Below, piece after piece: positions 1,703 through 30,325 of a stretch of DNA of 32,000 nt (the first letter of the stretch is position 1; every line of letters starts with the position of its first letter). The notes beneath the pieces are model-generated. The model made no database searches and was not told the origin of the DNA. It saw only the letters and a program-made list of their open reading frames with translations. A program made the position numbers and the translations under genes. Source of the DNA: Pyrolobus fumarii 1A (GTDB lineage: Archaea; Thermoproteota; Thermoprotei_A; Sulfolobales; Pyrodictiaceae); contig NC_015931.1 in assembly GCF_000223395.1 (NCBI RefSeq), positions 930,001 through 962,000 of the forward strand, in the 5' to 3' direction.

Positions 1703-1737
1703 CCCTAGGCGCGGGAAGCTGCCGGGGGCTACGGATT

Positions 1738-2430: not shown

Positions 2431-2480
2431 AGCCGTTATAATAGTCCGGTCTATGCGTTGCGGCACCGGGTGACTAGTTA

Positions 2481-3196: not shown

Positions 3197-3209
3197 ACCA
3201 GGGGAGCAA

Positions 3210-4154: not shown

Positions 4155-4186
4155 CGGGGTTTAGGGCACCAGTCTGGGCGCGGGCA

Positions 4187-5356: not shown

Positions 5357-5395
5357 CCGGGCTTGGGGGGCGCGTAGCGCGCGAGGTGGAGAAGA

Positions 5396-6043
5396 GTGTC
5401 GTTCGTGCCTAAGGAGAACCTCGTGGATGCAATAAGGAAGGCGATAGCGTACTCGCCGGAACGTAAGTTCAAGCAGAGTGTTGAACTGATAGTTGTGCTT
5501 AGGGACGTTGACCCTAGGACCCCGGAGGGCCGTATAAGGGAGATAGTATTCCTTCCACATCCGCCAAAGAAGCACGTAACGATATGTGTGGTTGCAGATG
5601 GTGATATGGCTGTCAAAGCACGTGAGGTCGCCGACCGTGTAATAACTCGTGAGGAGCTACAAGGTATTGACAGGAAGATGGCGAAGAAGATAGCACAGAC
5701 GTGCGACTGGGTGCTCGTCAAGACCGATCTTATGGGCCTGGCTGGTAGGATACTTGGTCCGGCTCTTGGTCCAAGGGGTAAGATACCAGTGCCGATGCCG
5801 CCGAACGTTAACGTGGAGGCGTTTGTCAACAGGTATAGAAGTGCTGTGATGGTGAGGACCAGGGACCAGCCACAGGTAATGGTTAGGATTGGCACGGAGG
5901 ACATGAGTCCCGAGGAGCTTGCGGAGAATGCGATGCGTGTGTTGCAAGTGCTGGAGGGTAAGCTGAAGAACCCGACCTACAACATCGCGAAGATTATCGT
6001 GAAGACCACGATGGGACCGCCTATAGAGGTCCGGCTACGGTGA
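5396..6043 (+). CDS. rpl1: 50S ribosomal protein L1
   Basis: KFKQSVELIVVLRDVDPR...FLPHPP...LAGRILGPALGPRGKIPVP is L1-like. GTG start preceded by GAGGTGGA. A small GCGCG-TAG-CGCGC hairpin lies in the leader at about 5372-5384. Confidence 0.92.
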   Translation: MSFVPKENLVDAIRKAIAYSPERKFKQSVELIVVLRDVDPRTPEGRIREIVFLPHPPKKHVTICVVADGDMAVKAREVADRVITREELQGIDRKMAKKIAQTCDWVLVKTDLMGLAGRILGPALGPRGKIPVPMPPNVNVEAFVNRYRSAVMVRTRDQPQVMVRIGTEDMSPEELAENAMRVLQVLEGKLKNPTYNIAKIIVKTTMGPPIEVRLR

Positions 6044-6062
6044 GGCGGCGGGGTGGGCGCCA

Positions 6063-7109
6063 GTGGCGCTTCGCATAGCGTTCAAGAGGACTAGGCCGAT
6101 ACCAGAGTGGAAGAAGAAGGAGGTTGAAGAACTAACCAGGCTGATAAAGAGCTACAAGGTTATCGCGATCGCGGACCTGACGGGTATACCAGCGGCGCAG
6201 TTGCACCGTATACGTAAGAAGCTACGCGAGAAGTATGGCGAGGACAAGATAAAGCTGCGTGTTGCTAAGAACAAGTTGTTCAAGCTCGCTCTCGAAAGGG
6301 CGGGTATAGATGCCAGCAAGTTTGAGCCTTATCTGACTGGCAACAACATATTCATCTTCGCTAACATAAACCCGTTCGAACTCGCAATGATACTAGACAA
6401 GGAGAGGGCAAGGGCGCCAGCAAAGCCGGGTATGAAGGCGCCCACTGAGATAGTCGTGCCAGCTGGCAACACGGGTCTCCAGCCAGGTCCAATCATGAGC
6501 GTGTTTAGCAAGCTCCGTATCCCGATACGTGTGCAGGAAGGCACCATCTGGATTGCAAAGGATACTGTTGTAGCCAAGCCAGGTGACGTGATAAGCGAGG
6601 AGCTCGCGTCGCTCCTCCAGAAGCTTGGCATAGAGCCTGTAGAGATATACCTAAAGCTCAAGATGGCCTATGAGGATGGTGTGGTTATCCCAGCAGAGCA
6701 CCTCTACATCAACATTGACGAGTATAGACAGCGCGTCGAGGAGGCTGTAAGACATGCGCTGTGGGTGGGTGTAGAGATAGCATACCCAGAGCCCGAGGTG
6801 ATGAAGCTAGCGATACCGGTTGCAGTAAGGCGCGCATTCGCTGTGGCAGCCGAAGCTGGTTACGTGACACCAGAGACGGCAGAGTTCGTACTAAGGACGG
6901 CAGTTGCGAAGGCACTAGCAGTCGTCGCCGCCCTAGGCGACAAGGCAAAGGAGCTAGGCATCGAGGTGCAAGTGGCTGCTCCGGCTGCGGCTGCGCCAGC
7001 TGCTACCGAGGAGAAGGAGGAAGAGAAGAAGGAAGAGGAGGAAAAGAAGGAAGAGGGCGTCAGCGAGGAGGAGCTCGCCGGCGGTCTCGAGAGCCTATTC
7101 GGCTTCTAA
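6063..7109 (+). CDS. rplP0: 50S ribosomal protein P0 (L10 family, stalk)
   Basis: L10/P0 N-terminal domain, then an Ala-rich hinge, a Glu/Lys-rich tract and the stalk tail EEELAGGLESLFGF. Confidence 0.92.
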   Translation: MALRIAFKRTRPIPEWKKKEVEELTRLIKSYKVIAIADLTGIPAAQLHRIRKKLREKYGEDKIKLRVAKNKLFKLALERAGIDASKFEPYLTGNNIFIFANINPFELAMILDKERARAPAKPGMKAPTEIVVPAGNTGLQPGPIMSVFSKLRIPIRVQEGTIWIAKDTVVAKPGDVISEELASLLQKLGIEPVEIYLKLKMAYEDGVVIPAEHLYINIDEYRQRVEEAVRHALWVGVEIAYPEPEVMKLAIPVAVRRAFAVAAEAGYVTPETAEFVLRTAVAKALAVVAALGDKAKELGIEVQVAAPAAAAPAATEEKEEEKKEEEEKKEEGVSEEELAGGLESLFGF

Positions 7110-7115
7110 ACGCCC

Positions 7116-7553
7116 CTACTTGGTTTCTATCTCAACCTCAGCGTACCTATCCACGCTCTCCCATACCCTCAGACGCACTTTCAGCTCTCTGCATCTTTCC
7201 GCGCCAAGTCTCCTACAGAGAGCTTCGTGTAGTTCTCTTGCTAGGGTTAGTGCTATGTGTTCGGTTGTCGCTGAATTGTAGGGTATCCTCTTTACGCGAT
7301 AATTAAAAACGCCGTGTGCCTCAAAGTGGCCGCTCGCTGGTAGTATAACAGCCATGTTCCACTCGGAAAGAATCGTTTGAAGAGTATCTCTCAGCAATCT
7401 AAAATCTACTACCATGCCATGCTCGTCTAGCGTGCCTTCTACCTCGGCATCTACACGAAAAGTGTGACCGTGGAGTATGGGCGTGGAGCCTGGCTCGGGT
7501 GTATAGTGGATAGCTTCGAAGACGAGATTTGCTACACCGACCTTCACGCGCAA
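7116..7553 (-). CDS. 6-pyruvoyl-tetrahydropterin synthase / QueD-family protein (paralog class undetermined)
   Basis: FEAIHY...ILHGHTFRVDAEVEG...HGMVVDF matches the PTPS/QueD fold signature (zinc His triad region, GMVxDF). No Cys precedes HGH, so I cannot assign QueD versus a PTPS-III-like function. Confidence 0.7.
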   Translation of the reverse strand: MRVKVGVANLVFEAIHYTPEPGSTPILHGHTFRVDAEVEGTLDEHGMVVDFRLLRDTLQTILSEWNMAVILPASGHFEAHGVFNYRVKRIPYNSATTEHIALTLARELHEALCRRLGAERCRELKVRLRVWESVDRYAEVEIETK

Positions 7554-7559
7554 AATGCT

Positions 7560-8153
7560 CTACCCCACGCCTCTACAAGCATCCAGGTGAGCGTTAATGC
7601 TTGCCAATATTCTCTTAAACCATGTTAGATATTCGCCTCTCGCTCTCCTCTCAAGGAATGAGATGCAAGGCTCTACGCTCCTATAGTGCGCGAGCTTCTC
7701 GCTGCAATCGTCGAATACCTTTACACGCGTGTAAGCGATTAACAGCTCGACTAGACAGGAGGCTAGGCGCGTGAACGGCTCCGGGTCGCTCACTTTAGCA
7801 GCTCTAACCGGCCTTAGTGTCAACCTCTTCTTGTATCCATCCATTTCTATACTCTCAACCCTAGCCTCTATCACGAGGTAAGGATTGGAGAGAGTAGGGC
7901 AACAGTACTCTTGGTTCTCGGTGCGTGCCTCCCCGAATAACACTCTAGCATAGTCGATAGGGTCCGAGGGGACCGAAAGCACAACACAGCCTCCTAACGT
8001 TGCATTGTAGAGCGTTGTACCAGGGTAGAGCCATGCGTATAGCATATCCCCGTCGCGTACCACACCCAGGGGCGTGAAGCGACAACCATGGTCAAGCGTA
8101 GCGATACTAGCGATAGTCTCGTATATCACTCCTTCGCGAAACCATCGAAGCAA
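7560..8153 (-). CDS. DUF447-like protein (split-barrel type, family often linked to tetrahydromethanopterin biosynthesis genes)
   Basis: The N-terminus FREGVIYETIASIATLDHGCRFTPLGVV resembles DUF447 family starts as I remember them. Called from memory of the family and from context only. Confidence 0.45.
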   Translation of the reverse strand: MLRWFREGVIYETIASIATLDHGCRFTPLGVVRDGDMLYAWLYPGTTLYNATLGGCVVLSVPSDPIDYARVLFGEARTENQEYCCPTLSNPYLVIEARVESIEMDGYKKRLTLRPVRAAKVSDPEPFTRLASCLVELLIAYTRVKVFDDCSEKLAHYRSVEPCISFLERRARGEYLTWFKRILASINAHLDACRGVG

Positions 8154-8816
8154 CTTATCCTCGAGATACTTGAGGCCATACGGGCTAGTTTAGGTTTCGA
8201 CCCACTTGCTGATCGTAGAGCAGCTGTGCTCCTCGAGACCCTCCTCTATGAGGCTATGAGCGAGGAGCGCTTAGCGAGCATTAGGGACATCAAAGCAATC
8301 GTTGAGGGACGCCTAGTAAGCGTGGTTGCAAGCGGCGCCTGTCTAGAAAAGGAAGCTAATCTCATCGAGGGGGTCATCATAGCTGCTGATGGCGCTACGA
8401 GCGTCTTACTACACATGGGCTTCGATTGCCCAGATATCATCGTGACCGATCTAGACGGGCCCCTCGAAGATATACTATGGTGTGCCTATCGCGGCTCGTT
8501 GATAGTCGTGCACGCGCATGGCGATAATGCATGGCTGCTCCACGAAATCGTGCCAAGAACGCCTCTCGTAGCTGGTAGTGTCCAGGTTGAGCCTTTGCTC
8601 GGCCTGGCTATGCTGCTGCCAGGCTTCACCGACGGTGATAGGGCAGCTTGGCTAGCGCACGTGGCAGGCGCATCAAAGATAAGACTCGTAGGTTGGTGTC
8701 CAGATGCACCTCAACACCCGTTATCAAAGAGGCTTGTTAACCCCCTTAAGCGTAGAAAACTAGTAATTGCAGAGAAGCTACTCGAGATGCTCAAGGGATA
8801 TCGTGGAGAGTTGTAA
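8088..8816 (+). CDS. mptE: MptE-like 6-hydroxymethyl-7,8-dihydropterin pyrophosphokinase (DUF115 family) candidate
   Basis: AADGATSVLL...PDIIVTDLDG...VVHAHGDN pattern as in archaeal MptE/DUF115. The track start (GTG 8088) overlaps the divergent gene by 66 nt. There is no canonical in-frame start between 8154 and the first internal ATG, so the 5' end is uncertain. Confidence 0.55.
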   Translation: MVKRSDTSDSLVYHSFAKPSKQLILEILEAIRASLGFDPLADRRAAVLLETLLYEAMSEERLASIRDIKAIVEGRLVSVVASGACLEKEANLIEGVIIAADGATSVLLHMGFDCPDIIVTDLDGPLEDILWCAYRGSLIVVHAHGDNAWLLHEIVPRTPLVAGSVQVEPLLGLAMLLPGFTDGDRAAWLAHVAGASKIRLVGWCPDAPQHPLSKRLVNPLKRRKLVIAEKLLEMLKGYRGEL

Positions 8817-9576
8817 GAGCGGTGCAAGGATACTATGGGTTGTGACTGGTGCCGGGAGCTGGCTCCGAGAAGCAGCCGGAATAGCAGCTGCTCTCGCAAA
8901 GTTTCATCGTGTAACCATTGCGTTGACTAAGGCTGGGTATGAAGTTGCAAGGGTCTTCGGGGCTCTCGGTTTATTGAGGCTCGCGGCGCCAGGCGGGTAT
9001 TATCGCGAGCTTGTAGTTGAAGCGTCGGCTAGCGGCTTGCCAGTCGTGAACAGAGTATCTGCAAAGAGCTATGATCTCGTCGTTATCGCGCCTGCATCCT
9101 CCAACACTATCGCTAAGATAGCGTATGGAGTTGCGGATAACCTGGCGTCCAGCGTTGCTAGCCAGGCTTTGAAGAACCGCGTGCCTCTTGCAATTGTGCC
9201 TAGCGAGTGGCCCGACGGTGTAGAAACCGAGCTGCCGTGTCGTGTTGACAGAAACCTTTGTGTAGGCTGTAAGGCGTGTATACCGGTCTGCCCTGTAGGT
9301 GCCATAACACTCGTTGAAGGCAAGGCACGTATAGAGCTGCAAGAGTGTGTCGGGTGTACTAGGTGTGTCGCAGCATGCCACGTTGGCGCAATCAAATGCT
9401 TCGATAGGGTCAAGGTGAGGCCTAGTAGAATTGATATTGAGAACTTGGAGAGAGTGAAGATGTATGGTGTTGTGGTTCTGGAGAGGCCGCTTCAAATCCT
9501 CAAGTGGGTATCTTCCATGGGGTATTGTGTCCCGGGCTCTTCGTTTATAGGAGGGAATGGCGGGTTGACGGAGTAA
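8767..9576 (+). CDS. Flavoprotein domain (AfpA/DmrB/CoaC-type) fused to a 2x[4Fe-4S] ferredoxin domain; DmrX-like candidate pterin reductase
   Basis: ILWVVTGAGS ... VVIAPASSNTIAKIAYGVADNL is the flavoprotein-family signature. CVGCKACIPVCPVGAI and CVGCTRCVAACHVGAI are two ferredoxin cluster motifs. An alternative in-frame start is GTG 8803. Confidence 0.6.
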   Translation: MQRSYSRCSRDIVESCKSGARILWVVTGAGSWLREAAGIAAALAKFHRVTIALTKAGYEVARVFGALGLLRLAAPGGYYRELVVEASASGLPVVNRVSAKSYDLVVIAPASSNTIAKIAYGVADNLASSVASQALKNRVPLAIVPSEWPDGVETELPCRVDRNLCVGCKACIPVCPVGAITLVEGKARIELQECVGCTRCVAACHVGAIKCFDRVKVRPSRIDIENLERVKMYGVVVLERPLQILKWVSSMGYCVPGSSFIGGNGGLTE

Positions 9577-9582
9577 CAGCGG

Positions 9583-10431
9583 GTGTGTGGGGTAACCCGG
9601 GTCTTGCCTTTCGGCAAACAGATGTTCACTGGGTGTAGTAGGGAGGATGTTGCGCCAGCCGTGCTTCTAACGAGCCTTGAGGAGGTCTACGAGGAGGCTA
9701 GTAATAAGCTGAAGAGCGTGTCTGGCGAGGTTCGCGGGCGCGGGGGCTTCGCATCCCGTAAGGGCAAGTATCACAACATCGAGATCATGGTGATGAAGAC
9801 GCCTATAGGTGCGCCTGCGACAGCCATCGCGCTAGAGGAGCTGTACAGGCTAGGTGCTAGGATATTTGTAAAGGTTGATACAGCGCTGGGCTTGCAGAGG
9901 AAGCTGCGCCCAGGCACCCTCATAGTGCCTATTGCTGCCGTGCGTGCCGAGAGTGTATCAAAGTACTATGCGCCGGCCGAGTACCCTGCAATACCAAGCT
10001 ACAAGTTCCTCCAGGTGCTAGACAAGGTGACCGTGCGCGGTAGTGGCGTAGAGCCCACCCCGACGGTGGTAATGAGCACCGACATGTTCTATCTAACGGT
10101 ACGAGAGGAGTACGAGAGGTGGGCTAAGCTCGTTGGAGCTGTAGATATGGATACAGCCGCGCTATACACCATCGCGCAGGTAAGAGGTCTTCATGCTGGC
10201 GCGCTGCTCGTGATAGACAGTAGCGTGTGGAGCGGGCCGCGCGAGGAGGTCTGGCTAGAGGAGAGTGAAGAGAGTGTTGTGAAGACGCGTGAAGAAGTGA
10301 TAAGTACGCTGCGCACGGCAGTCAACCTTGGTCTTGAGGCTCTCATAGTGATGTACGAGTATCTGAAGTCGGAGAAGGCTATTGAGCGACTGGAGAAGAC
10401 ACGTGGACAGAAGAGGCTTGTCTCGCTATGA
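9583..10431 (+). CDS. PNP/UDP-family nucleoside phosphorylase-like protein (divergent)
   Basis: The family layout is retained: AVRAESVSKYY (R-x-E/D-G-x-S region), MSTDMFY and VGAVDMDTAAL (EME-like). The G-x-G-x-PS and GTxG motifs are altered (TPIGAPAT, VDTALG). Confidence 0.6.
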   Translation: MCGVTRVLPFGKQMFTGCSREDVAPAVLLTSLEEVYEEASNKLKSVSGEVRGRGGFASRKGKYHNIEIMVMKTPIGAPATAIALEELYRLGARIFVKVDTALGLQRKLRPGTLIVPIAAVRAESVSKYYAPAEYPAIPSYKFLQVLDKVTVRGSGVEPTPTVVMSTDMFYLTVREEYERWAKLVGAVDMDTAALYTIAQVRGLHAGALLVIDSSVWSGPREEVWLEESEESVVKTREEVISTLRTAVNLGLEALIVMYEYLKSEKAIERLEKTRGQKRLVSL

Positions 10432-11558
10432 GCGTGGGAGCCCCCTTACCAGTAACGTGGAGTGAGAGGTTCACGAAGTTTTTCTTCTCAAGTAGCGATG
10501 AAGTCAACAAGGCCTGGATGGAGCGCATGAAGACATATCGGCGCTACCTTGACGAGACCGGGCTGGCACGATGCTGCGTAGAGTTCTTGGAGCCACGCGA
10601 GGCCCCATTAGAGCACATAAAATGGGTGCATGACGAGGAGTTTGTAGAGATGCTCTTAGAGGCTGATAAGCTACCGTCAGCAGTCGTGATAGACTATGGT
10701 GATACGCGTGCCTATCCCGGCTTCCTCAAAGACCTCCTACTGATAATAGGCGGTGAGGAGATACTTCTGGACCACCTTGTGGAGAGGGGACGTGTAGCCG
10801 GCTACCAGCCTTTTGGAGGCCTCCATCACGCGGCAAGTAGGAGAGCTTCAGGATTCTGCCCCGCCAACGACATTGCGGTTCTAATAGAATACGCTAGGAG
10901 GAAGTACGGCTGGAATAGGTTCGCCGTGATAGATATAGACGTGCATCATGGTGACGGTACACAAAGCATATACTGGAACGACCCCACAGTACTCGCGATA
11001 AGCTTCCATGGCTACTCGCCAGGCTTCTATCCCGGCACTGGCAACTACAATGAACTGGGAGGCGACCGCGCCAAAGGCACAAAGCTCAATGTCCCGCTTC
11101 CGCCCGGCACGGGCGACAAAGCATTTCTTACAGTATTCGAGCGGCTTGTGCCAGAAGCACTCCGCATATACCGTCCAAGACTCATAGTGGCGCAGCTAGG
11201 GGTGGATGGCCACCGAGACGATCCTCTAGGCATACTGATGCTAACAACAACTAGCTATGTACAAGCAACCAAGATGTTGAGAGAAGTTGCTGAAGAGATA
11301 GGTGCTGTTCTTGTCGGAGTAGGTGGTGGGGGCTATGGTGTTAGCGCGTCGCGTGCAATGATAGCAGAGACTGTAGGACTCATAGGCGGGCTTGACAAAC
11401 TACCTCCCGATGTAAGGGTAAGGGTAGAAGAGCTAATGGATCCTGAACCGACAAGTGATCCGCCGCAACGCGTGCAAAGCTTAGTGGAGCTAGCGGATCT
11501 TCTCCTCCAGAAGCTTGAGGAGGCGGTAGCCCCAGAGGAGGAAGAGGAAGAGAACTAA
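10428..11558 (+). CDS. Histone deacetylase / acetylpolyamine amidohydrolase (AcuC) family protein
   Basis: GGLHHA, DIDVHHGDGTQ and GVDGHRDDPLG are class I/II HDAC-fold zinc-site motifs. The start overlaps the upstream stop (ATGA). Confidence 0.85.
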   Translation: MSVGAPLPVTWSERFTKFFFSSSDEVNKAWMERMKTYRRYLDETGLARCCVEFLEPREAPLEHIKWVHDEEFVEMLLEADKLPSAVVIDYGDTRAYPGFLKDLLLIIGGEEILLDHLVERGRVAGYQPFGGLHHAASRRASGFCPANDIAVLIEYARRKYGWNRFAVIDIDVHHGDGTQSIYWNDPTVLAISFHGYSPGFYPGTGNYNELGGDRAKGTKLNVPLPPGTGDKAFLTVFERLVPEALRIYRPRLIVAQLGVDGHRDDPLGILMLTTTSYVQATKMLREVAEEIGAVLVGVGGGGYGVSASRAMIAETVGLIGGLDKLPPDVRVRVEELMDPEPTSDPPQRVQSLVELADLLLQKLEEAVAPEEEEEEN

Positions 11559-17909: not shown

Positions 17910-18695
17910 GTGGCGAATGTGCGTGGAGTTAGTGTCGCCGTTCTGGGCGCGGGTAAGATGGGTTCCGCGATAGGTAAGGCGCTGCTCGAGTGTGGTGCGA
18001 GGGTTCTAGCGACTAGGGCTCGTAGGGAGTTGCTCGGGGAGCTTGCTAGGCTAGGATTCGAGCCCATAGAGTCTAACCGCGTCGCGGCTGAGCGCGCAGA
18101 CCTTGTGATAATTGCCGTGAAACCATGGCATGTTGAGAGCGTTGCCAGGGAGGTGAGAGACGTGGTTGTGGGTAAACCTGTCGTGTCGATAGCGGCTGGC
18201 GTGCGGCTTGAAAAGCTGCGCTCTTTGATGCCAGGTGCAATAGTCTATCGCGCGATGCCCAATATGGGTGTTCTTGTAGGATTATCTGCTACTGCTCTTG
18301 CTGGAGACCGAAATACTGATGCGGCTAGAATGGTCGAAGACGCTTTCCGATGCATGGGTGAAGTGTTCTGGATAGATGAGAAGCTCTTCCCCGCGTGGAC
18401 TGGCTTGGCTGGGAGCGGCCCAGGCATACTAGCGTCGATCGCTGATGCGCTGGCGCTAGCCGGCGTCGCTGCTGGTATATCAAGACGTGACGCGGAGCGC
18501 ATAGTGTCGCTGCTGTTCCGTGCTGTAGGCGAGTTGCTCCTTACCAAGGGGTTCCAGGGGCTCAGGGATGAGGTGGCAACGCCTGGTGGTACGACTATAG
18601 AGGGGCTACGTGTTTTAGAGCAGGGTGCGAGGGGCGCCATCATAGACTCTATCCTAGCGGCTGTGGAGAAAGCGAGGAGGCTGGAGGAGAGTTGA
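17910..18695 (+). CDS. proC: Pyrroline-5-carboxylate reductase
   Basis: Rossmann motif VAVLGAGKMGSAIG, then VKPWHV, RAMPNMGVLVG and ATPGGTTIEGLRVLE. Confidence 0.88.
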   Translation: MANVRGVSVAVLGAGKMGSAIGKALLECGARVLATRARRELLGELARLGFEPIESNRVAAERADLVIIAVKPWHVESVAREVRDVVVGKPVVSIAAGVRLEKLRSLMPGAIVYRAMPNMGVLVGLSATALAGDRNTDAARMVEDAFRCMGEVFWIDEKLFPAWTGLAGSGPGILASIADALALAGVAAGISRRDAERIVSLLFRAVGELLLTKGFQGLRDEVATPGGTTIEGLRVLEQGARGAIIDSILAAVEKARRLEES

Positions 18696-19858
18696 ACGCG
18701 ACGCTGGCAATACTAGCCCTCCTAGTCTTCAACATGGGTGGTGTATTCGACCTTACTGGTGTAGGTCCCGGTGTGGCAACGGGACGCGTTCTGTACACGA
18801 ATGGGACCAAGGTAGGAGTCGTGGCTAGTGTTAATGGTAGTGTGTTTGCATTGCGGGACTATACACCGTTGGATGCCGGATGGGGCACCATACTAATGGC
18901 TAGTCGTGATGGCAAACTCCTAGTAGCCTACAAGAATGGCAGCATGTACCAGTTGGGCGATGTTGTAAAGAGTATGCCTCCCTATCGAGTCACCTCAAAA
19001 GGCGCCCTCGTTACGGCTGGTTTAGTAGCACTGCTGGTGAACAAGAGTGGTGCCGCAAGATTACGTGTGGACGGTCTACTCGTGGTTGACTACCGTGATG
19101 GTGTTGTGCTAGGCTCTAGAGGTGGCAATGACGCGGTAATCTTGAGGGGTAGTAGTGCTCTCCTCTATGAAGGCCTAGCACCACTAGCACTGTGTAACGA
19201 GACGCACGCCGTTGTTGTGTATAAAGGTGATATAGGTATACTCGGGTATAGAAATGGGCTTGTCACACTCATACACGTTGATAATGTCAAGCCTGTTTGG
19301 GGAGAGACGCTGGATTACAGCATAGCATCGTGTAGCGATGGCACATTGGCTTTCACGGGTAGGGCGAACAGTACTATAACAATAGTCGTTCTCGACACGG
19401 CTAGTGGCTCTTGTTGGCTTGTAAAACCCTTAGGTGAGGTGAGGGGGGCGGGTGTCGCTGTCGACGGGAAACGTGTGACAGCTGCTTTCAGCGTCAAAGG
19501 TGGAGCTAAACTAGCAATATACAAGTGTAGGTTTAAGGTTGAGAGTCTCTTCGTGGAGCCTAAGAGGCTCAACGCGACCATATTATTGGAGAGCGTGGAG
19601 AGTAGTGCGGTGAGCATAGAGAGGCTGCCAGCGGTAAACAAGACGACAATGTTGGCGCCAAACCTTCTGCTTGCAGTTCTCGAGGTGAGAAGCTCGGGTG
19701 AGAGTGGTGCGGGTAAAGTTAAGCTCGGGAATGCCCCCGGTGTCCCCGTGTTACTGCTCCTGGTTATCTTCTTCACCTTGTTAGCTTCCATCTTGCTAGC
19801 TAGACGATCGGTAAGGAGGATATCTTCGGCGGAGTCCGCTCGTCACCATCCCGGATAG
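18692..19858 (+). CDS. Hypothetical exported glycoprotein with a C-terminal TM anchor
   Basis: N-terminal hydrophobic segment, many N-x-S/T sequons (NGT, NGS, NKS, NET, NST, NAT, NKT), and a C-terminal VPVLLLLVIFFTLLASILLA followed by RRSVRR. The start overlaps the proC stop (TTGA). Confidence 0.6.
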   Translation: MNATLAILALLVFNMGGVFDLTGVGPGVATGRVLYTNGTKVGVVASVNGSVFALRDYTPLDAGWGTILMASRDGKLLVAYKNGSMYQLGDVVKSMPPYRVTSKGALVTAGLVALLVNKSGAARLRVDGLLVVDYRDGVVLGSRGGNDAVILRGSSALLYEGLAPLALCNETHAVVVYKGDIGILGYRNGLVTLIHVDNVKPVWGETLDYSIASCSDGTLAFTGRANSTITIVVLDTASGSCWLVKPLGEVRGAGVAVDGKRVTAAFSVKGGAKLAIYKCRFKVESLFVEPKRLNATILLESVESSAVSIERLPAVNKTTMLAPNLLLAVLEVRSSGESGAGKVKLGNAPGVPVLLLLVIFFTLLASILLARRSVRRISSAESARHHPG

Positions 19859-20380: not shown

Positions 20381-20637
20381 GGGGTACCCCCCTCCATGAG
20401 CATCGTGAGTAGCGCGTAGTGTGTTGTTGCGGGCCCTACCGCCCCTGACTCCCTCATCATTGGCGGAAGCCTCGGAGCCAACGCTCTCGCCACCGGGCCC
20501 GCCACTGTGAATCATTGTCGCGTGGTCTCTGGTATACCCTCAACCTCTTCGAAAAATGTTCGGGACCACTTTAACACATTAAAGTCAAATTAATGTTAAC
20601 ACGTGTATTGCTGCAGTGTGCGTTAACTACTGTCACA

Positions 20638-20646
20638 TTTTATTAT
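20638..20646 (+). promoter_or_regulatory. TATA-like tract (TTTATTATT) upstream of the cytochrome gene
   Basis: It lies in a strongly AT-rich spacer 40 nt upstream of ATG 20686. GGTG sits 8 nt before the ATG as a possible SD. Confidence 0.4.
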
Positions 20647-20685
20647 TGGTTTCGAGCATTGTAATCCAAAATAGTGGTGTAAAAC

Positions 20686-21849
20686 ATGAGATTGAGGAAA
20701 CGCGATATCATAGTCGTCCTAGCTGCTCTGGTTATGGGGGTATACGCGGCATCCGCTGCAACACTCTGGGCTCCAGTTGAGGAGATGGGAAGCACATGGC
20801 TAGGCGAGATGAGGTTCGCTGATACGCTTCACGCAACCACCAAGGGCATGAAGTACTGGTATGAGCGTGGCATAGGGAAATACACAGGGATACCATACGA
20901 GCAAATGTTCTGCTCAAAATGCCACGCTACGTGCGAGTCTTGCCATGGCGTCCGAGACAGTAACGGTAACGTAGTAGACTTCAGCGTGAAGATGGCGAGT
21001 AACCCAGATACGTGCTTTGCCTGCCATGGCAGACAGAAGAAGGCATACCTGCTAGGCAAGAGTAACCCAGAGCTAGCAGACGTCCATATGTTGGGTCTCG
21101 GAGTATCGTGCACCTTCTGCCACTCTAGTGTAGAAGTGCATGGTATGCACGGTGACTTCCAGTACATGTTCGACAAGGGTGGCGTGTTCGACGTGAGCTG
21201 TGAAAAGTGCCACATATACGGCTATGCGCCGAGACCATACAGATTCATAGAGGAGCATCGCGTGCATCTCGATGATATAGCCTGTTCTGCTTGCCACTCT
21301 CCAACAGTAGTGACATGTTACAACTGTCACCTTTCATACTCGTACGAGAAATACGTAGAGACTGGGGTGCCCGTCAAGAAGGCTATACCGATCATTGGTT
21401 GGCTGCCGCTGGTACGCGACCAGAGGACGGGCAAGATAGTCCCGGGTAACTTCATGGTTGTAGTCTGGACCCACAACGGCACCGAGGCGGTGCGTGTCGA
21501 CATAGCGCAGTTCTTCCCGCACATCGTGGACGAGAGGGGTCGTACCTGCAACGACTGTCATGGTATAGAGGCTGCTAAGCAGCTGCTCGAGAGTGGCGAG
21601 CTACGCCTAGTATGGGTTGAGAATGGGCAAGTGAAGCACATGAACGGCGTCATACCGATAGTCGAGGGCACCAAGCTGGTATTCCAGACATTCGTGTGGG
21701 ACGAGGCCAGCAACAGCTTCAAGCCGTTCAAGGAGGTGGTTGTGACGGTCGGCCCAGACACTCTCATTGAAGCCACCAGCGGCCTCACCATGGAAGACCT
21801 TGAGAAAATGGCAAAATCCCCCGAGGAACTCCAGAGTGGTACAAGCTGA
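20686..21849 (+). CDS. Octahaem c-type cytochrome, N-terminally anchored or secreted
   Basis: Eight CXXCH motifs: CSKCH (aa 76-80), CESCH (83-87), CFACH (110-114), CTFCH (142-146), CEKCH (172-176), CSACH (200-204), CYNCH (211-215) and CNDCH (288-292). N-terminal hydrophobic segment IIVVLAALVMGVYAASAA. Confidence 0.85.
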   Translation: MRLRKRDIIVVLAALVMGVYAASAATLWAPVEEMGSTWLGEMRFADTLHATTKGMKYWYERGIGKYTGIPYEQMFCSKCHATCESCHGVRDSNGNVVDFSVKMASNPDTCFACHGRQKKAYLLGKSNPELADVHMLGLGVSCTFCHSSVEVHGMHGDFQYMFDKGGVFDVSCEKCHIYGYAPRPYRFIEEHRVHLDDIACSACHSPTVVTCYNCHLSYSYEKYVETGVPVKKAIPIIGWLPLVRDQRTGKIVPGNFMVVVWTHNGTEAVRVDIAQFFPHIVDERGRTCNDCHGIEAAKQLLESGELRLVWVENGQVKHMNGVIPIVEGTKLVFQTFVWDEASNSFKPFKEVVVTVGPDTLIEATSGLTMEDLEKMAKSPEELQSGTS

Positions 21850-24988: not shown

Positions 24989-25100
24989 CCTTACGTCATA
25001 AGTATCCTCGACGGAGGTGTATGTTATTAATTTTCCTGGCAGAAAGTTTCCAACAAGCTATAACAATCATAAAAGTAGTGCATCCATACTGGGATAAACA
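24989..25100. promoter_or_regulatory. Divergent AT-rich promoter region
   Basis: ATAAAA at 25069-25074 lies 27 nt before ATG 25101, a leaderless-type spacing. An AAATTAATAA-like tract on the minus strand at about 25021-25035 faces the ABC ATPase start at 24988. Confidence 0.45.
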
Positions 25101-25220
25101 ATGTATACAAGGCGTAAGATCGTACTACTGCTGCTATCCTCGCTAATGTTAATAGTGATAACAGCTATTAGCGTGTATGCAGGGAGCGCATTCTGCTCTA
25201 GCACCGGAAAACACTATTGA
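25101..25220 (+). other. Signal/anchor-peptide mini-ORF (39 codons), out of frame with the downstream body
   Basis: Hand translation: MYTRRKIVLLLLSSLMLIVITAISVYAGSAFCSSTGKHY-stop, with a basic n-region plus h-region. The body ORF 25177-25518 is in the +1 frame. Confidence 0.5.
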
Positions 25221-25518
25221 GGTAAACGCATATGCACTGTACAACAATGGCTATGGAAGGGTAGACGCCTCTGCAAAGGCATACGACAGTACAGACGAAG
25301 TAATGGTAATGATATACGCCCGGTTTGACGACACACCCGTCTATTGTGCAATAGATTTTGGCCAGGGCTATGCTTACGCCTATATCGACTCTAAAGAGGC
25401 TGGGATTGAGAACGTCAAGTATACGTATGCTGAGGCTGAAGGAGAGAATTACAATACAGGTGAAACTGTGTTTGTATCGGCCTTTGCGTCACAAAGTAGC
25501 GGATGGTGTGGCTGCTAA
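25177..25518 (+). CDS. Small acidic Tyr-rich protein ending in CGC; probably the body of a frameshifted exported protein
   Basis: The 113-aa track ORF has no signal peptide of its own, and its frame is open from 25162. No family recognised. Confidence 0.5.
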   Translation: MQGAHSALAPENTIEVNAYALYNNGYGRVDASAKAYDSTDEVMVMIYARFDDTPVYCAIDFGQGYAYAYIDSKEAGIENVKYTYAEAEGENYNTGETVFVSAFASQSSGWCGC

Positions 25519-25567
25519 CATGACAAGACGATCAACATGATAAACAAGTGTAGCTAGGTGATACGTC

Positions 25568-25666
25568 ATGATGCATGGATCACAATTTTCTAAAACACTG
25601 AGTCTCCTGTTTTTTATCCTCCTTTCTCTCTCTATTCTTGCCATTACATCATGTTGCAACGCTTAA
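25568..25666 (+). other. Second signal-peptide mini-ORF (32 codons), out of frame with the downstream body
   Basis: An AGGTGA SD (25556-25561) lies 6 nt before ATG 25568. Translation: MMHGSQFSKTLSLLFFILLSLSILAITSCCNA-stop. The body ORF is in the +1 frame. Confidence 0.5.
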
Positions 25667-26750
25667 TACCCTTATCGCAGCAGAAGGCTTGCCTCCTAAC
25701 GACTTTAGCGACCCTGGTAACCCTATTGTACTTGTTTACAAGGTTTGCAGCTTGAGTAATAAGACGATAATATTCTTCAACACTACATCGGGCGGGAAAC
25801 AGCCTATAGGAAGCTGTGTCACGCTCAACATAACATTGTTTAGAGTTAATGATAGTAGCTTCGTCGTGAGGTATACGTTCAAAGCCACGAATTTCAAACT
25901 TGTAAAAGAGTATGTGCTGGTAAAACCGTACTACATGTTGTTTAACTCTAGTGGTGATTTCGCTGGTGCATTCCCCTTCATGTTGTTCGACGTCAATATC
26001 GTGAACGATACTATCGTTAAGATATATAGTAATCAAATTTTCTATAGTGTAAGTTTTAGATGTTCTAGGGACGAGTGTAGCGAGCCCCTCAAGCTCTTGC
26101 AAGATGTTATTAGGGGATGCAGTAAGCGTGGTGTAACGCGTCTAAACAAGACGGTATCGATTATAGTCTCCAAGGAAGAGGTATACGTAAAGCTTAGATG
26201 GGCTCCTCTTATGCTCATGTATGTTCTCTCCAAGCGTCCGGCAGACAAACCTATAATCGTGGATGGTGTCCGCCTGGGTCCTGAAAGGCTTATAGTATTC
26301 GATGCGGAGAGTGCCTCTGGGCTTAGCGCTAGTATCGTGAAAGCTGCGATGGAGAAAAGGGGTCTAAAGGTACTACATTGCGAGGTAACTAAAAATGGAA
26401 AACTTGTCGGAGTTGTCGTGCTTACGCCGGATTGTCGTATATCCGTGATTATCGTTTATGGGAGGCATGTTGGATACTATGACTTGTTAACGCGTGTACT
26501 AGTGTATGGCGTGTATGAGGGCGGGCCGTGTGCGAATGTACTGTGTGTGTTTCCGCTTGACACCCAGTTCTACTTTGATCGTTTCGAGATGAGGGGTGTC
26601 GAGGTTAGGTTAGTGTATACAAATCTCCCGTTGAGTAGCGTGAATTATGTTGTTGGTACGGATAGACCGTACAGGCTGTACACGCTTGCGCTTGCTGCAT
26701 TGTGGGTCATCATCTCATCGATACTTATGCACTTGTTTAGAAGGTGGTGA
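25638..26750 (+). CDS. Sequon-rich extracellular protein with a C-terminal TM anchor (hypothetical)
   Basis: 370-aa track ORF (TTG start as listed, frame open from 25602). Sequons NKT, NTT, NIT, NDS, NSS, NDT and NKT. C-terminal LYTLALAALWVIISSILMHLF followed by RRW. Confidence 0.6.
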   Translation: MPLHHVATLNTLIAAEGLPPNDFSDPGNPIVLVYKVCSLSNKTIIFFNTTSGGKQPIGSCVTLNITLFRVNDSSFVVRYTFKATNFKLVKEYVLVKPYYMLFNSSGDFAGAFPFMLFDVNIVNDTIVKIYSNQIFYSVSFRCSRDECSEPLKLLQDVIRGCSKRGVTRLNKTVSIIVSKEEVYVKLRWAPLMLMYVLSKRPADKPIIVDGVRLGPERLIVFDAESASGLSASIVKAAMEKRGLKVLHCEVTKNGKLVGVVVLTPDCRISVIIVYGRHVGYYDLLTRVLVYGVYEGGPCANVLCVFPLDTQFYFDRFEMRGVEVRLVYTNLPLSSVNYVVGTDRPYRLYTLALAALWVIISSILMHLFRRW

Positions 26751-27133
26751 TCATGACGGGTAGGTACGCGGGTTTCCTGCTACCGGTCGTAGTATGGGTT
26801 GTTGTGATGCTCGCCTTCAGCCTAATGGTCTACACTGTGGACTACCCTACGGGTGGCTACTTTTCCTATACGCCGTGGAGCGCTGGCATACCATCCGCGT
26901 ACTTAGGGAGGATCTATATTTGCTCATGGGGAGGGAATGCGAGTATCAGCATTAGACTCTCGGGTATAAAGATGGCTAAGTTTTTGGTTCTGGCTGAGGC
27001 TATCGGAAGCGGCTCTAATGTCACGGTGTCTAGACTCGTTGTTGGAGATTCTCGTAGCCTGGCGTTCACGTATGAGCTTAGGAGCCCAGACCTCTACAGG
27101 TTTACGATCCTAGTGGCGTTTTGTGCCAAGTGA
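26744..27133 (+). CDS. Hypothetical membrane-anchored protein (129 aa)
   Basis: N-terminal TM FLLPVVVWVVVMLAFSLMVY followed by a beta-like ectodomain. It overlaps both neighbours (7 nt and 11 nt), consistent with an operon. Confidence 0.55.
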   Translation: MVIMTGRYAGFLLPVVVWVVVMLAFSLMVYTVDYPTGGYFSYTPWSAGIPSAYLGRIYICSWGGNASISIRLSGIKMAKFLVLAEAIGSGSNVTVSRLVVGDSRSLAFTYELRSPDLYRFTILVAFCAK

Positions 27134-28088
27134 GGGAGCGGCACAAATCCTTGTAGAGTTTAACGCTTGGGGGCCTAGACGAGAACTGGCAGCGAACATG
27201 GTGGTATCGGCGCTCTTCTTCGCAGGCCTATGGGCTGCAGCGACAAGCCTGATATACGCGTGGGTCAGTCGTACCAGCAGAGAGCTATTGTTGTTCTTTG
27301 CGAGGTTTCCGGCGACGAGCCTGCTAGGCAGCATCGGCGCGATAGCGATCCTGAGTGATGTGTGGCCACCAAAGGTGTTGATAGACTATTCTCCCAGGGT
27401 TGTTGCTATGTACGCTTCTATCACGAGCTACGAGTCTTTCACACTCTATCTTCTACTCTTCCTGTCGGGTCTCTACGCGGTACTCTTCTACGCGTACGCC
27501 ATCGAGCGCAAGCTCTTCGACGCGTTAGAGCTGGCGTCGTTCAGGAGGAGTGAAGTGGTGAGGACACACCTAGTCTCCTGGGTACTGTTATACTGGTTGC
27601 TGGTCATCTTCACTGTCCTAACGCTAAGCTACTCCTACGCCGCGATACTCTACCAGCTTAGACCCATAGAAGCGCTTAGTATCGTAATGCCAGTTGTGCT
27701 GCTAGAGTTGACGTTCTATCTTCTTGTAGGATATCTGGTCGCTACGCTGCTCTGCATGGTGTTTGGCAGAGTGAATGTCGCGATTCTAGCTCATTTGCTC
27801 GCCTCGTTCGGGATAGTTGAGCTTGTCCGCAACCACCCCCGCATATTTGAGGTGTACTGGAGCCTAGCAGATCTTGACATCCCGGTGTTTGGCATACCCC
27901 TCTTCGACAAGAGTGTAGAGGAGGTGACGGTGGGCGAGGTGCTTAGCAAGATGCAGGAGAGGCTAAACATCATTATGAGCAGCATGCTGGTCGAACGGTT
28001 GATACCGAAGACGGTGATGGTATCTGCTACGCTGCTAATACTCGTAGCCATACTATATGTGGTGGCTATGAGGAGAGAGTTTCGGTAG
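27123..28088 (+). CDS. Polytopic membrane protein, likely the ABC-2-type permease partner
   Basis: 321 aa with about 6 hydrophobic helices and a last TM near the C-terminus (VMVSATLLILVAILYVVAM). The permease assignment comes from context with the divergent ABC ATPase. Confidence 0.5.
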   Translation: MPSEGAAQILVEFNAWGPRRELAANMVVSALFFAGLWAAATSLIYAWVSRTSRELLLFFARFPATSLLGSIGAIAILSDVWPPKVLIDYSPRVVAMYASITSYESFTLYLLLFLSGLYAVLFYAYAIERKLFDALELASFRRSEVVRTHLVSWVLLYWLLVIFTVLTLSYSYAAILYQLRPIEALSIVMPVVLLELTFYLLVGYLVATLLCMVFGRVNVAILAHLLASFGIVELVRNHPRIFEVYWSLADLDIPVFGIPLFDKSVEEVTVGEVLSKMQERLNIIMSSMLVERLIPKTVMVSATLLILVAILYVVAMRREFR

Positions 28089-28133
28089 GAGCGTGGCGAC
28101 TCAGCGTACGCGTGTTGGCGTGTTTATCCAACT

Positions 28134-29096
28134 CTACGCGTGCCTCGAGAGGTAGTCGAGTATTGTTTTTGCTATGGCTCTGGCTAGTGGTGGTGGCACG
28201 GCCTCGCCAACCTGGTTGTATTGCTCATCGCGGCCGCCGAGGAACACATGGTTATCTGGGAAGCCCATTAGCCTAGCTTGTTCGCGGACCGTTAGGAACC
28301 TATCCTCGTAGGGATGGATGAAGCGGCTCGAGCCAAGGACGGTTGGGGCGGGTTTCCGTGGGTCGAGGCGGATAAGGTTAGGTAGTCTCCTACCCTCAGC
28401 ACCCTCGTATAGTATCATCGCTTGACCCCAACGTAGCCTTGCTATCCTCTTAGCCTTCTTGGGGCTAGTTGAAGGTGGCTCGTGATTCGGGGGCCATGGA
28501 GCACCAGGTTCTGGTAATCCCTTCAGAGCGTCACGTACAGTGAGTAGTCTCCTAGAGGGCCTTGGACGCAGGGGTATGTTGGATATGAATACTCTCCTCC
28601 TGTGGCTCGGCGTCCCGTACCTCTCGGCCTCGAGGATATTGAAGTATATGCGTTCGTAGCCTGCTCTCGCGAATACCCTTCTCAGCTCGTCGCGTAACTC
28701 GCCCTCAAGTATACCCGGCACATTCTCCATCACGAACACCTTTGGTCTAAGCTCTCCGACTATGCGGGCATAGTGGAGTACAAGCTGGCCTATCGGATCC
28801 CTGTACAGTCTATCAAGCGGGTCTTTCATCCTACGTGGGTTTGCGCCAGTGAACGGCTCGCAAGGCGGACTACCTATCACCACATCGGGTTGGCCAACGA
28901 GCCTCTCGATCAGCCTGCCGGTAACCTCCCTCACATCTATATGCAGGGCTATCGCTTCTGGAAAGTTCGCCTTAAAGCTGCGTATCGCGGCCGCGTCGTT
29001 ATCTACGCCCAAGAGGACTTGGAAGCCTGCGTCCCGGAATCCTCTCGAGAATCCACCGGCACCGCTAAACAAGTCTATAATTGTGAAGCGTGTCAA
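28134..29096 (-). CDS. DNA (cytosine-5)-methyltransferase (Dcm family)
   Basis: Motif I IDLFSGAGGFSRGF, IV GSPPCEPFT, VI FVMENVPG, VIII SHRRRVFI, IX REQARLMGFPDNHVF and X YNQVGEAVPPPLARAI. Confidence 0.88.
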   Translation of the reverse strand: MTRFTIIDLFSGAGGFSRGFRDAGFQVLLGVDNDAAAIRSFKANFPEAIALHIDVREVTGRLIERLVGQPDVVIGSPPCEPFTGANPRRMKDPLDRLYRDPIGQLVLHYARIVGELRPKVFVMENVPGILEGELRDELRRVFARAGYERIYFNILEAERYGTPSHRRRVFISNIPLRPRPSRRLLTVRDALKGLPEPGAPWPPNHEPPSTSPKKAKRIARLRWGQAMILYEGAEGRRLPNLIRLDPRKPAPTVLGSSRFIHPYEDRFLTVREQARLMGFPDNHVFLGGRDEQYNQVGEAVPPPLARAIAKTILDYLSRHA

Positions 29097-29102
29097 GCGA
29101 GA

Positions 29103-29615
29103 CTAGCCCCTCCTCTCCTCTTTCGCTATCTCCTCCTCGAGCTTCTGGATAACCTCCTCGAGTATACTAACTATCTGCTCCTGCCTCTCGTCCGGCTCCA
29201 GAGGCGAGCCACACCTCGGACATATCATTCCATACTCCATTGCCTCGTCAAAGGTGAAGCGTAGCCCGTCGGTCGGGCACGTGTAGAATATGTTGTCGCG
29301 CTCATACTCGAGACGCAGTCGGAGCTTCTCTATAACGGCCTTCTTCCGCGCCACGAGGGCAGGTCTGAGATTCTCGAAGTTGACGCGCCAGTAGAATATC
29401 AGGCGGCCTGTATCGGGGTCTCTCTGCTTCCTATAGATGACGAAACCAGACTCCATTAGCTTGTTGAGCGCCCTTCTAATAACGTTGAACTTCAGCCCGG
29501 TCTTCTCGGCCATCTGCTCCTCGGTTAGCTCCTGACCGCTCTCATAGAGTATCCTGAGTACCTCGCGTGTTTCTGGCCCGTAGAGCCTCTCGATGAATGT
29601 GTAGAGCTGTTCCAT
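29103..29615 (-). CDS. tfe: Transcription factor E (TFE-alpha, TFIIE-alpha homolog)
   Basis: wHTH EVLRILYESGQELTEEQMAEKTGLKFNVIRRALNKLMESGFVIYRKQRD plus zinc ribbon YTCP...CPRCGSPL. I prefer ATG 29615 (MEQLYTF...) by alignment to Sulfolobus TFE as I remember it. The maximal ORF reaches GTG 29681, which overlaps the mbf1 stop as GTGA. Confidence 0.85.
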   Translation of the reverse strand: MEQLYTFIERLYGPETREVLRILYESGQELTEEQMAEKTGLKFNVIRRALNKLMESGFVIYRKQRDPDTGRLIFYWRVNFENLRPALVARKKAVIEKLRLRLEYERDNIFYTCPTDGLRFTFDEAMEYGMICPRCGSPLEPDERQEQIVSILEEVIQKLEEEIAKEERRG

Positions 29616-29677
29616 CGTGGACCCTAGTACTACTGAGGTTGAAAGAAGGTGGATAAGGGCTACCCCGGGGGCGCTTT

Positions 29678-30325
29678 TCACTCCTCACGTATCTCGACAA
29701 TATCGCCGAGTGTCAGCTCGAACTCGCTGCGCTTGCGCCTAGACCCGGAGACCCCAAGCTCGACATCCTCTTCGACAACGGGCTCCAGAAGCTTGATGCC
29801 AAGCACCTTCTCCAGCCTTCTGGCAAGATCCACGGTTGGTACCAGGGTGCCAGCCTCAATCCTCTTGATAACATTAACCCTCTCCTTAACTCTCACGGCG
29901 AGCTCCTCTTGAGATAGACCGAGTCTTTCACGGGCCCTCCTTACCCTCTCCGCGAAATCAGGTACGACCTCGTACCTCTCAGCCAGCCTATCGCTGCCTA
30001 GGCCTCTCCCACGGCCCCCGCCCGGCCTGGGCGTAACTGGTCTGGTGGAGGGCCTTGGCGTGGACGGGCGTGCTAGAGCGGGTGAGGGCCTAGAGGCTGG
30101 TGTAATAGTTGTACGGGTAGCACCGCCACCGGATATGCGAGCCTTGAGTGGCACATCCTCTGTTCCCGTGCTTCTCGCGCGACTAATATACCGGTTGTAG
30201 CACCTTTCACACACGTACATCTCGCTACCCTCAACGTATATAACGTATGGCTCGTCCTCGACGGGCAGGCCACACATCTCACAGTAAAGGACGCGTCTCC
30301 TGCTAGACAAGGACCTGCACCCCAC
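29678..30325 (-). CDS. mbf1: Archaeal multiprotein bridging factor 1 (zinc ribbon + XRE-type HTH)
   Basis: N-terminal CEMCG...CERC zinc ribbon. C-terminal FAERVRRARERLGLSQEELAVRVKERVNVIKRIEAG HTH. A long Pro/Arg/Thr/Ser linker lies between them. Confidence 0.8.
   Translation of the reverse strand: MGCRSLSSRRRVLYCEMCGLPVEDEPYVIYVEGSEMYVCERCYNRYISRARSTGTEDVPLKARISGGGATRTTITPASRPSPALARPSTPRPSTRPVTPRPGGGRGRGLGSDRLAERYEVVPDFAERVRRARERLGLSQEELAVRVKERVNVIKRIEAGTLVPTVDLARRLEKVLGIKLLEPVVEEDVELGVSGSRRKRSEFELTLGDIVEIREE

Follow-up and report, generated by a model that had tools for sequence, protein, structure and literature searches.

The DNA analysed here is a stretch of 32,000 nucleotides from the archaeon Pyrolobus fumarii 1A (the window), which carries on its forward strand, at positions 20686 to 21849, the gene Pyrfu_1008. 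The product of this gene is an exported eight-haem c-type cytochrome which belongs to a large uncharacterised family of bacteria and archaea with no Pfam or NCBIfam model of its own; judged from profile alignments of the sequences, this family is a distant relative of octahaem tetrathionate reductase (OTR) and a distinct family in the OTR/MmcA branch of multihaem cytochromes. The protein is proposed, with a probability of roughly 0.45, to act as a stand-alone OTR-like reductase or electron-exit module which is exported by the Sec route, matured by a cytochrome c maturation (Ccm) system and equipped with one non-standard haem.

Read from the ATG at 20686, the gene comprises 387 codons and a stop codon. 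A motif scan located eight CXXCH motifs, at residues 76, 83, 110, 142, 172, 200, 211 and 288 of the 387, which bore out an earlier note on this DNA (made by a model from the letters and their translations) in describing eight motifs behind an N-terminal signal or anchor, seven of them within residues 76-215 and one pair only two residues apart (motifs 1 and 2, CSKCH-AT-CESCH). All 16 cysteines of the protein lie inside a CXXCH, and no CXXCK, CX3CH or CX4CH variant was found in it. A chance open reading frame (ORF) was rejected as an explanation, the eight motifs standing in the Pyrfu_1008 frame and none in any of the other five frames of the 32-kb window.

The candidate Sec signal peptide or signal anchor covers residues 1-29 (20686 to 20772, + strand) and consists of a basic stretch (RLRKRD), a 13-residue hydrophobic core and the sequence ASA|A, with possible cleavage after A-S-A24. 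The top Kyte-Doolittle window spans residues 8-26, and a helix was modelled by AlphaFold2 (AF2) at residues 2-41. Table S1 of Kletzin et al. 2015 (PMC4429474) lists Pyrfu_1008 as SignalP-positive with one transmembrane helix and as 'cytochrome: YES', and flags the P. fumarii genome as '>=3 CCM: YES', that is, at least three homologues of cytochrome c maturation (CCM) proteins; the lack of a maturation system, which the earlier note had named as grounds for abandoning its reading, is thus not what the genome presents. The set of CXXCH motifs, the N-terminal signal or anchor and the CCM homologues in that table together mark the protein as a multihaem c-type cytochrome, for which covalent haem attachment is predicted.

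The protein was divided into three parts. A conserved pre-haem segment (20815 to 20871, + strand) reads F-x-[ST]-S-L-H49-x-T-x-x-G54-[M/K/H]55-x-x-W-Y59-x-x-G62 and lies at the start of an OTR-like six-haem core (residues 43-208, 20812 to 21309, + strand; delimited with hhalign against the OTR family), in which the motifs of haems 1-6 begin at nucleotides 20911, 20932, 21013, 21109, 21199 and 21283 and the conserved distal histidines are H134, H152, H191 and H194. The core is followed by a C-terminal domain predicted by AF2 to be beta-rich (residues 209-387, 21310 to 21846, + strand), which holds the family-specific haem 7 (CYNCH, nucleotide 21316) and haem 8 (CNDCH, nucleotide 21547), the latter preceded by an invariant H279.

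Profile alignment with hhalign showed a distant relationship of the Pyrfu_1008 family to OTR, with a probability of 98.1% against the single sequence Igni_1130 and of 98.9% (E 2.8e-17) against a 25-sequence OTR profile, query residues 43-208 aligning with OTR residues 78-330; a permissive alignment extended over residues 38-313 (99.1%, E 1.8e-18). The haem map so obtained is collinear: haems 1-6 of the query pair with haems 2-7 of OTR, the two haems 8 pair with each other, OTR haem 1 has no counterpart, and haem 7 (the invariant T-C-Y-N-C-H) has been added directly after the counterpart of OTR haem 7. Residues H49, H134, H152, H194 and H279 align with invariant OTR histidines, S-L-H49 with the S-x-H of OTR, and G54-M55 with the OTR glycine and lysine. 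In the C-terminal half, only H279...C288xxCH aligns with OTR, in its haem 8 region, and this half aligned alone against OTR gave a probability of 37%, which is not significant.

Formal membership of OTR was rejected. Curated libraries returned generic matches only (Pfam Cytochrom_c3_2, 29.7 bits); the OTR model TIGR04315 scored 31.2 bits against a cutoff of 375 and over residues 129-221 only, and PF11783, which is present in all 120 listed relatives of the OTR-like Igni_1130, was not matched by Pyrfu_1008 even at E<=10. The scores thus fall below the hidden Markov model (HMM) cutoffs, the haem order differs, and the lysine with its N-D-F-C stretch is lacking. The earlier note could not place the protein among NrfA, HAO, OTR or MtrA, and this stands for formal membership (as it does for MccA and DmsE) but not for descent, as the hhalign result makes it placeable as a distant OTR relative.

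The window protein matches, at 100% identity, the entry 'hypothetical protein Pyrfu_1008 [Pyrolobus fumarii 1A]' and is not a new sighting, having been catalogued and threaded onto OTR in 2015 without a function. Kletzin et al. (PMC4429474, Tables S1 and S2) assigned it to 'cluster 13 multiheme', with no function given, together with Ferp_0264, Arcve_1313, the ANME-1 proteins BSM_13300, BSM_13170 and GZ27E7_11, and LI82_00240, and threading gave OTR (1SP3) and the Kuenenia HAO-like protein 4N4J, with 63% of the length covered at a confidence of 99.6%. Cluster 13 is the same family as that described here; the 2015 paper is without haem mapping, ligand analysis or the bacterial bulk of the family. 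The present analysis adds the haem-by-haem map onto OTR, the failed formal memberships, the Met/Lys/His position and the unmatched beta-domain, as well as the size of the family, its taxonomic range, its solitary context and its targeting to the cell surface.

A word-indexed search returned 26 homologues, and a wider alignment was built of 105 family representatives. Among the nearest homologues, with identities of 83% and then 59-63%, are proteins from Pyrodictium and from Pyrodictiaceae metagenome bins. Pyrfu_1008 aligns over its full length with both sets and has all the signature residues of the family, namely a module of ~340-400 amino acids with S-L-H-x-T-x-x-G-[MKH]-x-x-W-Y, then seven CXXCH motifs of which the seventh lies in T-C-Y-N-C-H-F, then the beta-domain with H-x(8-9)-CxxCH; across the 105 representatives the eight CXXCH motifs show no or almost no variation. 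When 1.84 billion cluster representatives were scanned with the family HMM, 6212 matches were obtained with a threshold of E<=1e-3 and 370 with one of E<=1e-30. Nearly the whole profile is spanned by most of the top 150, and many matches join two or three entire modules in a natural fusion that carries 16 or 24 haems.

A scan of GTDB, with one genome per species, yielded 76 loci; it was seeded with the [VI]TCYNCH[FL] subset, so that the list of taxa is biased towards that motif. The hosts were Pyrodictiaceae, Archaeoglobales, Ignavibacteria/Melioribacteraceae, Calditrichota, KSB1, Zixibacteria, Planctomycetota, Gemmatimonadota, Acidobacteriota, Desulfobacterales, WOR-3 and others. Of the 76 genes, 24 terminate in a sorting domain for type IX secretion (PF18962 was confirmed in 5/5 proteins tested), such tails being seen in Ignavibacteria-like bacteria, and lipoprotein boxes or a PKD domain are present in family members as well. 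Because of these tails, boxes and PKD domains the family is taken to work beyond the cytoplasm, often on the cell surface, to which many bacteria send their members by type IX secretion.

The genes are mostly solitary. At ~59 of the 76 loci no second ORF with at least three CXXCH motifs was found within 8 kb, and no conserved gene neighbourhood was common to the contexts examined in detail. The solitary gene, seen at these loci and in every context examined in detail except one bacterial metagenome bin (GCA_947085185.1), fits a self-contained module. In that bin (positions 1-10711) the family gene lies between two CRP/FNR-type regulators and adjoins a Rieske/cytochrome b complex and three more multihaem genes, one of them NapC/NirT-like; this was the sole respiratory gene cluster observed around a homologue. 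On one archaeal contig a homologue of 46% identity (6237-7655) lies directly 3' of a gene for glutamyl-tRNA reductase (hemA-like), which carries out the first step of haem synthesis, and this arrangement was seen once.

Position 55 lies directly after the conserved glycine of the pre-haem segment. Across the 105 representatives, H49 is conserved in 98%, G54 in 97% and Y59 in 91%, and position 55 is Met in 54 (as in Pyrfu_1008), Lys in 35 and His in 3 (92/105, 88%). Met, Lys and His are the three classical haem axial ligands. On a neighbour-joining tree position 55 changes 20 times, compared with 66 times each for positions 53 and 56, and all modules within one fused protein carry the same type. 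The OTR lysine is K56 after G55 in 1SP3 (by residue counting), and in the 25-sequence OTR alignment the glycine is invariant and is followed by Lys in 15/25. In OTR it is this conserved Lys, and not the motif-associated His, that ligates the catalytic haem 2, the other seven haems being bis-His (PMC11024163). H49 and Met55 are accordingly named here as candidate axial ligands of Pyrfu_1008.

The conserved ligands number 15, made up of the eight motif histidines, six other histidines (49, 134, 152, 191, 194 and 279) and position 55, for 16 axial positions, a deficit of one which equals that of OTR. Haem 1 may be OTR-like, with Met55 as its proximal ligand and its distal side open, H80 being freed to ligate a neighbouring haem; in the other arrangement considered, haem 1 would be a His/Met haem and one other haem would be open. 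Three conserved non-ligand residues, Arg116 (89% of the 105), Tyr59 (91%) and Asp132 (92%), could be pocket residues.

We infer that the protein would work on the outer face of the cytoplasmic membrane, held by an uncleaved N-terminal helix or released under the surface layer (S-layer). Electrons would enter from membrane quinol-oxidising cytochromes or hydrogenase-linked carriers, run along a chain of bis-His haems made up of the OTR-like haems 2-6 and of haems 7 and 8 in the beta-domain, and arrive finally at a single haem of non-standard kind. This would most probably be haem 1, which is homologous to the catalytic haem of OTR. Met55 would there take the extra ligand position which Lys takes in OTR, and an external oxidant would be reduced at or near this haem.

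Several observations weigh against the proposal of a module with a non-standard haem. At position 55, 13 of the 105 representatives (~12%) have Leu, Ile, Gln, Phe, Ala or Arg, and these non-ligand residues weaken the ligand reading; the N-D-F-C stretch that follows the lysine of OTR is absent from Pyrfu_1008; and, with Met at the ligand position, haem 1 could be a simple six-coordinate His/Met electron-transfer haem. The haem lacking a ligand was assigned by arithmetic and not from a structure, AF2 placing no haems. Among the 76 GTDB loci, type IX tails occur only on Lys- or His-type members and never on the Met type, and Pyrfu_1008 belongs to this Met-type subfamily without type IX tails. The three HAO-like octahaem proteins of P. 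fumarii are equal or better candidates for nitrite ammonification, and a search of a paper library by locus tag gave no mention in any main text.

The main rival, which we regard as unlikely, is a pure conduit or shuttle similar to MmcA or the periplasmic STC, with eight six-coordinate haems, haem 1 being a His/Met haem of higher potential, which would pass electrons between membrane complexes and periplasmic reductases (HAO-like) or outward to the S-layer and would have no catalytic site. MmcA provides the precedent of an OTR relative turned conduit, and Met at the OTR Lys position, the loss of the N-D-F-C signature and the want of a dedicated partner gene are all in keeping with such a role, as are the tandem fusions of 2-3 modules, which give chains of 16 and 24 haems. 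A conduit of this kind would require full six-coordination, from which the conserved ligands are one short; the counterpart of the OTR catalytic-haem motif has been kept, unlike in MmcA, and Arg116, Tyr59 and Asp132 could form a pocket.

When the family profile was run against all PDB sequences, matches were confined to the haem core (residues 70-210), and the best of them were wire-like proteins, which again suits a conduit (GSU1996, 3e-14; MtrA, 2e-12); NrfB (3e-8) and OTR 1SP3 (4e-7) followed, and MccA (1e-6), OcwA (8e-6) and NrfA (3e-4) were weaker. Membership of the other known multihaem families was rejected in each case. Pyrfu_1008 has no CXXCK and has a beta-domain instead of a three-helix bundle, and the PDB matches to NrfA (E>=2.6e-4) extend over ~70 residues, which disposes of NrfA/ONR. 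No HAO chain was among the PDB profile matches at E<=1 and there is no helical C-terminus, so that HAO/HDH/IhOCC was also set aside. MccA needs a CX15CH haem 8 and a Cys-ligated Cu, for which there is no spare Cys, and its match covers the haem core only. MtrA/DmsE was rejected on haem number (eight, not ten), on TIGR03508 (24.6 bits against a cutoff of 192) and on the lack of a porin-like neighbour at the locus, and is further disfavoured by a host archaeon with no outer membrane; an OcwA-like protein was rejected as haem number and C-terminal fold differ.

The full-length AF2 model had a predicted local distance difference test score (pLDDT) of 87 and a predicted template modelling score (pTM) of 0.82, the beta-domain lying mostly above a pLDDT of 90; modelled alone, this domain had a mean pLDDT of 85.5. 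Its strands span residues 208-354, and the model has no long C-terminal helices and no three-helix bundle, because of which the architecture of NrfA, HAO, MccA and OcwA was excluded. Foldseek searches of PDB gave no usable match for the full model (best E 0.87) or for the beta-domain alone (best E 0.19), the hits of both being OB-folds, PAS and EF-G with template modelling (TM) scores <0.2; as the haem-free models show little secondary structure in the haem core, this negative result is informative for the beta-domain only. The modelled beta-domain is thus predicted to have a fold without counterpart among the solved structures of PDB.

The two- and three-module fusions suggest contact between modules, and they raise the thought of a homo-oligomeric or filamentous extracellular cytochrome 'wire' subunit in which the missing ligand would be supplied across subunits. 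Cytochrome nanowires are known in other hyperthermophilic archaea, which speaks for this reading, as does the one axial ligand unaccounted for. A conserved ligand donated across subunits would already be in the count of conserved residues; no sequence or fold similarity to solved nanowire subunits was found, and the N-terminal anchor points instead to a monomer or dimer bound to the membrane. We consider such a wire subunit very improbable.

With regard to the substrate of the proposed reductase or electron-exit module, P. fumarii respires nitrate, thiosulfate and trace oxygen at temperatures of up to 113 degrees C. It performs nitrate ammonification and, according to the species description, reduces thiosulfate, for which reasons intermediates of nitrogen and sulfur reduction are plausible candidates (nitrite or hydroxylamine en route to ammonium; thiosulfate, tetrathionate or polysulfide). 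For relatives displayed at the surface, extracellular acceptors are plausible by virtue of that display. A connection with the respiration of Fe(III) or minerals, or with nitrogen and sulfur oxyanions, which the earlier note had put forward for multihaem cytochromes in general, is kept here as a hypothesis.

A narrower version would make Pyrfu_1008 a dedicated ammonifying nitrite/hydroxylamine or thiosulfate/tetrathionate reductase, the missing terminal enzyme of a known P. fumarii respiration. The organism turns nitrate into ammonium, and neither an NrfA-type (CXXCK) protein nor a canonical OTR (PF11783) from P. fumarii was found in the Kletzin clusters or the OTR search; Shewanella OTR reduces tetrathionate, nitrite and hydroxylamine in vitro (PMC11024163), and a deficit of one ligand fits a single active site. 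The active-site residues of OTR are, on the other side, not conserved, the hosts (ANME-1, Archaeoglobales, Planctomycetota, Zixibacteria, Ignavibacteria and others) have no link to nitrate ammonification or to nitrogen and sulfur gene clusters, the same genome has three HAO-like octahaem proteins, and no nitrate or thiosulfate reductase gene adjoins Pyrfu_1008 among the window ORFs scanned. A dedicated reductase is in our view improbable; it and the polymeric wire are both less likely than the pure conduit.

The earlier note had called the cytochrome 'lone', which is true within the locus and not of the genome. P. fumarii has three HAO-like octahaem proteins (Pyrfu_0788, 1334 and 1339; PMC4429474; Kashyap and Holden 2021, PMC8105010), which fall in a cluster other than 13 in Kletzin 2015 (PMC4429474), as well as the tetrahaem Pyrfu_1102 and 11- and 6-haem proteins in Pyrfu_0785-0788 (PMC4429474, PMC8105010). 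The remark of the earlier note that multihaem cytochromes are uncommon in Crenarchaeota is likewise only loosely true, in view of these several proteins and of Pyrodictiaceae and Ignicoccus, which are known for them.

To our knowledge, the terminal enzymes of nitrate, thiosulfate and oxygen respiration in P. fumarii have not been assigned, and Pyrfu_1008 is a testable candidate for these pathways. The Met/Lys/His switch at the OTR Lys position offers a simple handle for mutagenesis and spectroscopy, and the significance of the protein would be higher if the non-standard haem were catalytic or if it were the respiratory electron exit of P. fumarii. A bolder proposal, which we put forward tentatively and with some doubt, is that the OTR-derived octahaem proteins of this family form a functional class that is new, in which the ligand of the former catalytic haem has been switched between Met, Lys and His, tuning potential or chemistry, and two extra haems lie in the unmatched beta-domain; Pyrfu_1008 would be its Met-type prototype working above 100 degrees C, either as a novel reductase for a sulfur or nitrogen intermediate or as the outward electron exit of P. 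fumarii respiration.

The gene lies between a divergent upstream neighbour, AdoMet decarboxylase (speH; PF02675; 19944-20339, - strand), and a convergent downstream neighbour, a DUF5591/ArcS-C-terminal-domain protein (PF17884; 21855-22619, - strand), which it meets five bases past its stop codon. Due to this arrangement Pyrfu_1008 is considered monocistronic, and it and its neighbours occur in identical order in three P. fumarii assemblies. The region 5' of the gene (20556 to 20685, + strand) has 65% A+T over 130 nucleotides compared with 47% in the window, in agreement with the earlier note, which had reported an AT-rich promoter region of the gene's own between speH and an ArcS-type gene. 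A TATA-like TTTTATTATT lies at 20638-20647 (+ strand) and a Shine-Dalgarno-like GGTG at 20676-20679 (+ strand), and the region was assigned by consensus alone as a putative archaeal promoter. Two copies of GTTAAC, at 20595 and 20622, lie 5' of the TATA-like box around the palindrome ACACGTGT at 20599; here, within 20590-20647, a regulator may bind in the promoter region that the gene shares with the divergent speH. Two start codons come into question, namely ATG 20686, to which the GGTG stands 7-10 nucleotides 5', and the start annotated in GenBank, a TTG two codons downstream (region 20686-20694) which gives a protein of 385 amino acids. Recent horizontal transfer was rejected, the A+T content of the gene (46.5%) equalling that of the window (46.6%).

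According to Pfam scans, the other ORFs of the window serve translation, transcription and metabolism. Among the ORFs so scanned there was no ccm gene, oxidoreductase partner, second cytochrome or porin-like gene, which matches what the earlier note had said of maturation, partner and porin-like genes. Two genes upstream of the cytochrome gene, an ORF of 388 amino acids without a family match (18692-19858, + strand) encodes a product with a signal at its N-terminus, a transmembrane anchor at its C-terminus and numerous N-x-S/T sequons, which give it the look of a surface glycoprotein; this ORF is absent beside the homologues of the cytochrome elsewhere. Further downstream, positions 25000-30325 form a low-GC island (GC 0.43-0.47, compared with about 0.54). 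Its + strand ORFs (25177-25518, 25638-26750, 26744-27133 and 27123-28088) have no Pfam, PADLOC or PHROG match, and its - strand encodes a type II cytosine-5 DNA methyltransferase (28134-29096), a winged-helix/TFIIE-alpha-like protein (29103-29681) and an HTH_3 regulator (29678-30325). One possible reading of this region is an integrated element, another a restriction-modification-like or defence island.

Compared with known systems, Pyrfu_1008 shares with the OTR of Shewanella oneidensis (SO_4144, 1SP3) the number of eight CXXCH motifs, an extracytoplasmic site and the lack of a C-terminal three-helix bundle. Five of the seven distal histidines of OTR have counterparts in it, about 20 residues ahead of the counterpart of the catalytic haem stands a ligand-type residue preceded by an invariant Gly, and there is one axial ligand fewer than there are axial positions. 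It differs from OTR in having no haem 1, an extra haem 7, Met for Lys and no N-D-F-C, in being about 140 residues shorter, and in a C-terminal domain without detectable similarity.

An archaeal parallel is MmcA of Methanosarcina acetivorans (MA0658), an OTR-related heptahaem conduit to methanophenazine, Fe(III) and AQDS (anthraquinone-2,6-disulfonate; PMC11024163). Like the present family, MmcA is an archaeal OTR relative in a separate clade with an altered haem complement, and it is a precedent for a function other than that of OTR. In MmcA the counterpart of OTR haem 2 and its lysine are missing, motifs of the CX3CH and CX4CH type are used, and the gene is part of the rnf operon, whereas Pyrfu_1008 has kept the haem 2 counterpart, has CXXCH motifs only and is a solitary gene.

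With NrfA, ONR, HAO and MccA on the one hand, and NrfB, MtrA and GSU1996 on the other, the likeness consists of generic parallel/perpendicular haem-packing motifs in residues 70-210 and of weak profile matches; haem counts differ, and NCBIfam scores are far under the cutoffs. OcwA of Thermincola potens (6I5B) is a surface terminal reductase of NrfA/MccA type with nine haems, two of them open, and a three-helix bundle. The resemblance to OcwA is a functional analogy, that of an electron-transfer chain joined to open-coordination haems outside the membrane, with weak core similarity (E 8e-6); Pyrfu_1008 has eight haems and a beta-domain and no helix bundle. The family would thus join MmcA and OcwA as multihaem enzymes rebuilt by the loss and gain of haem modules.

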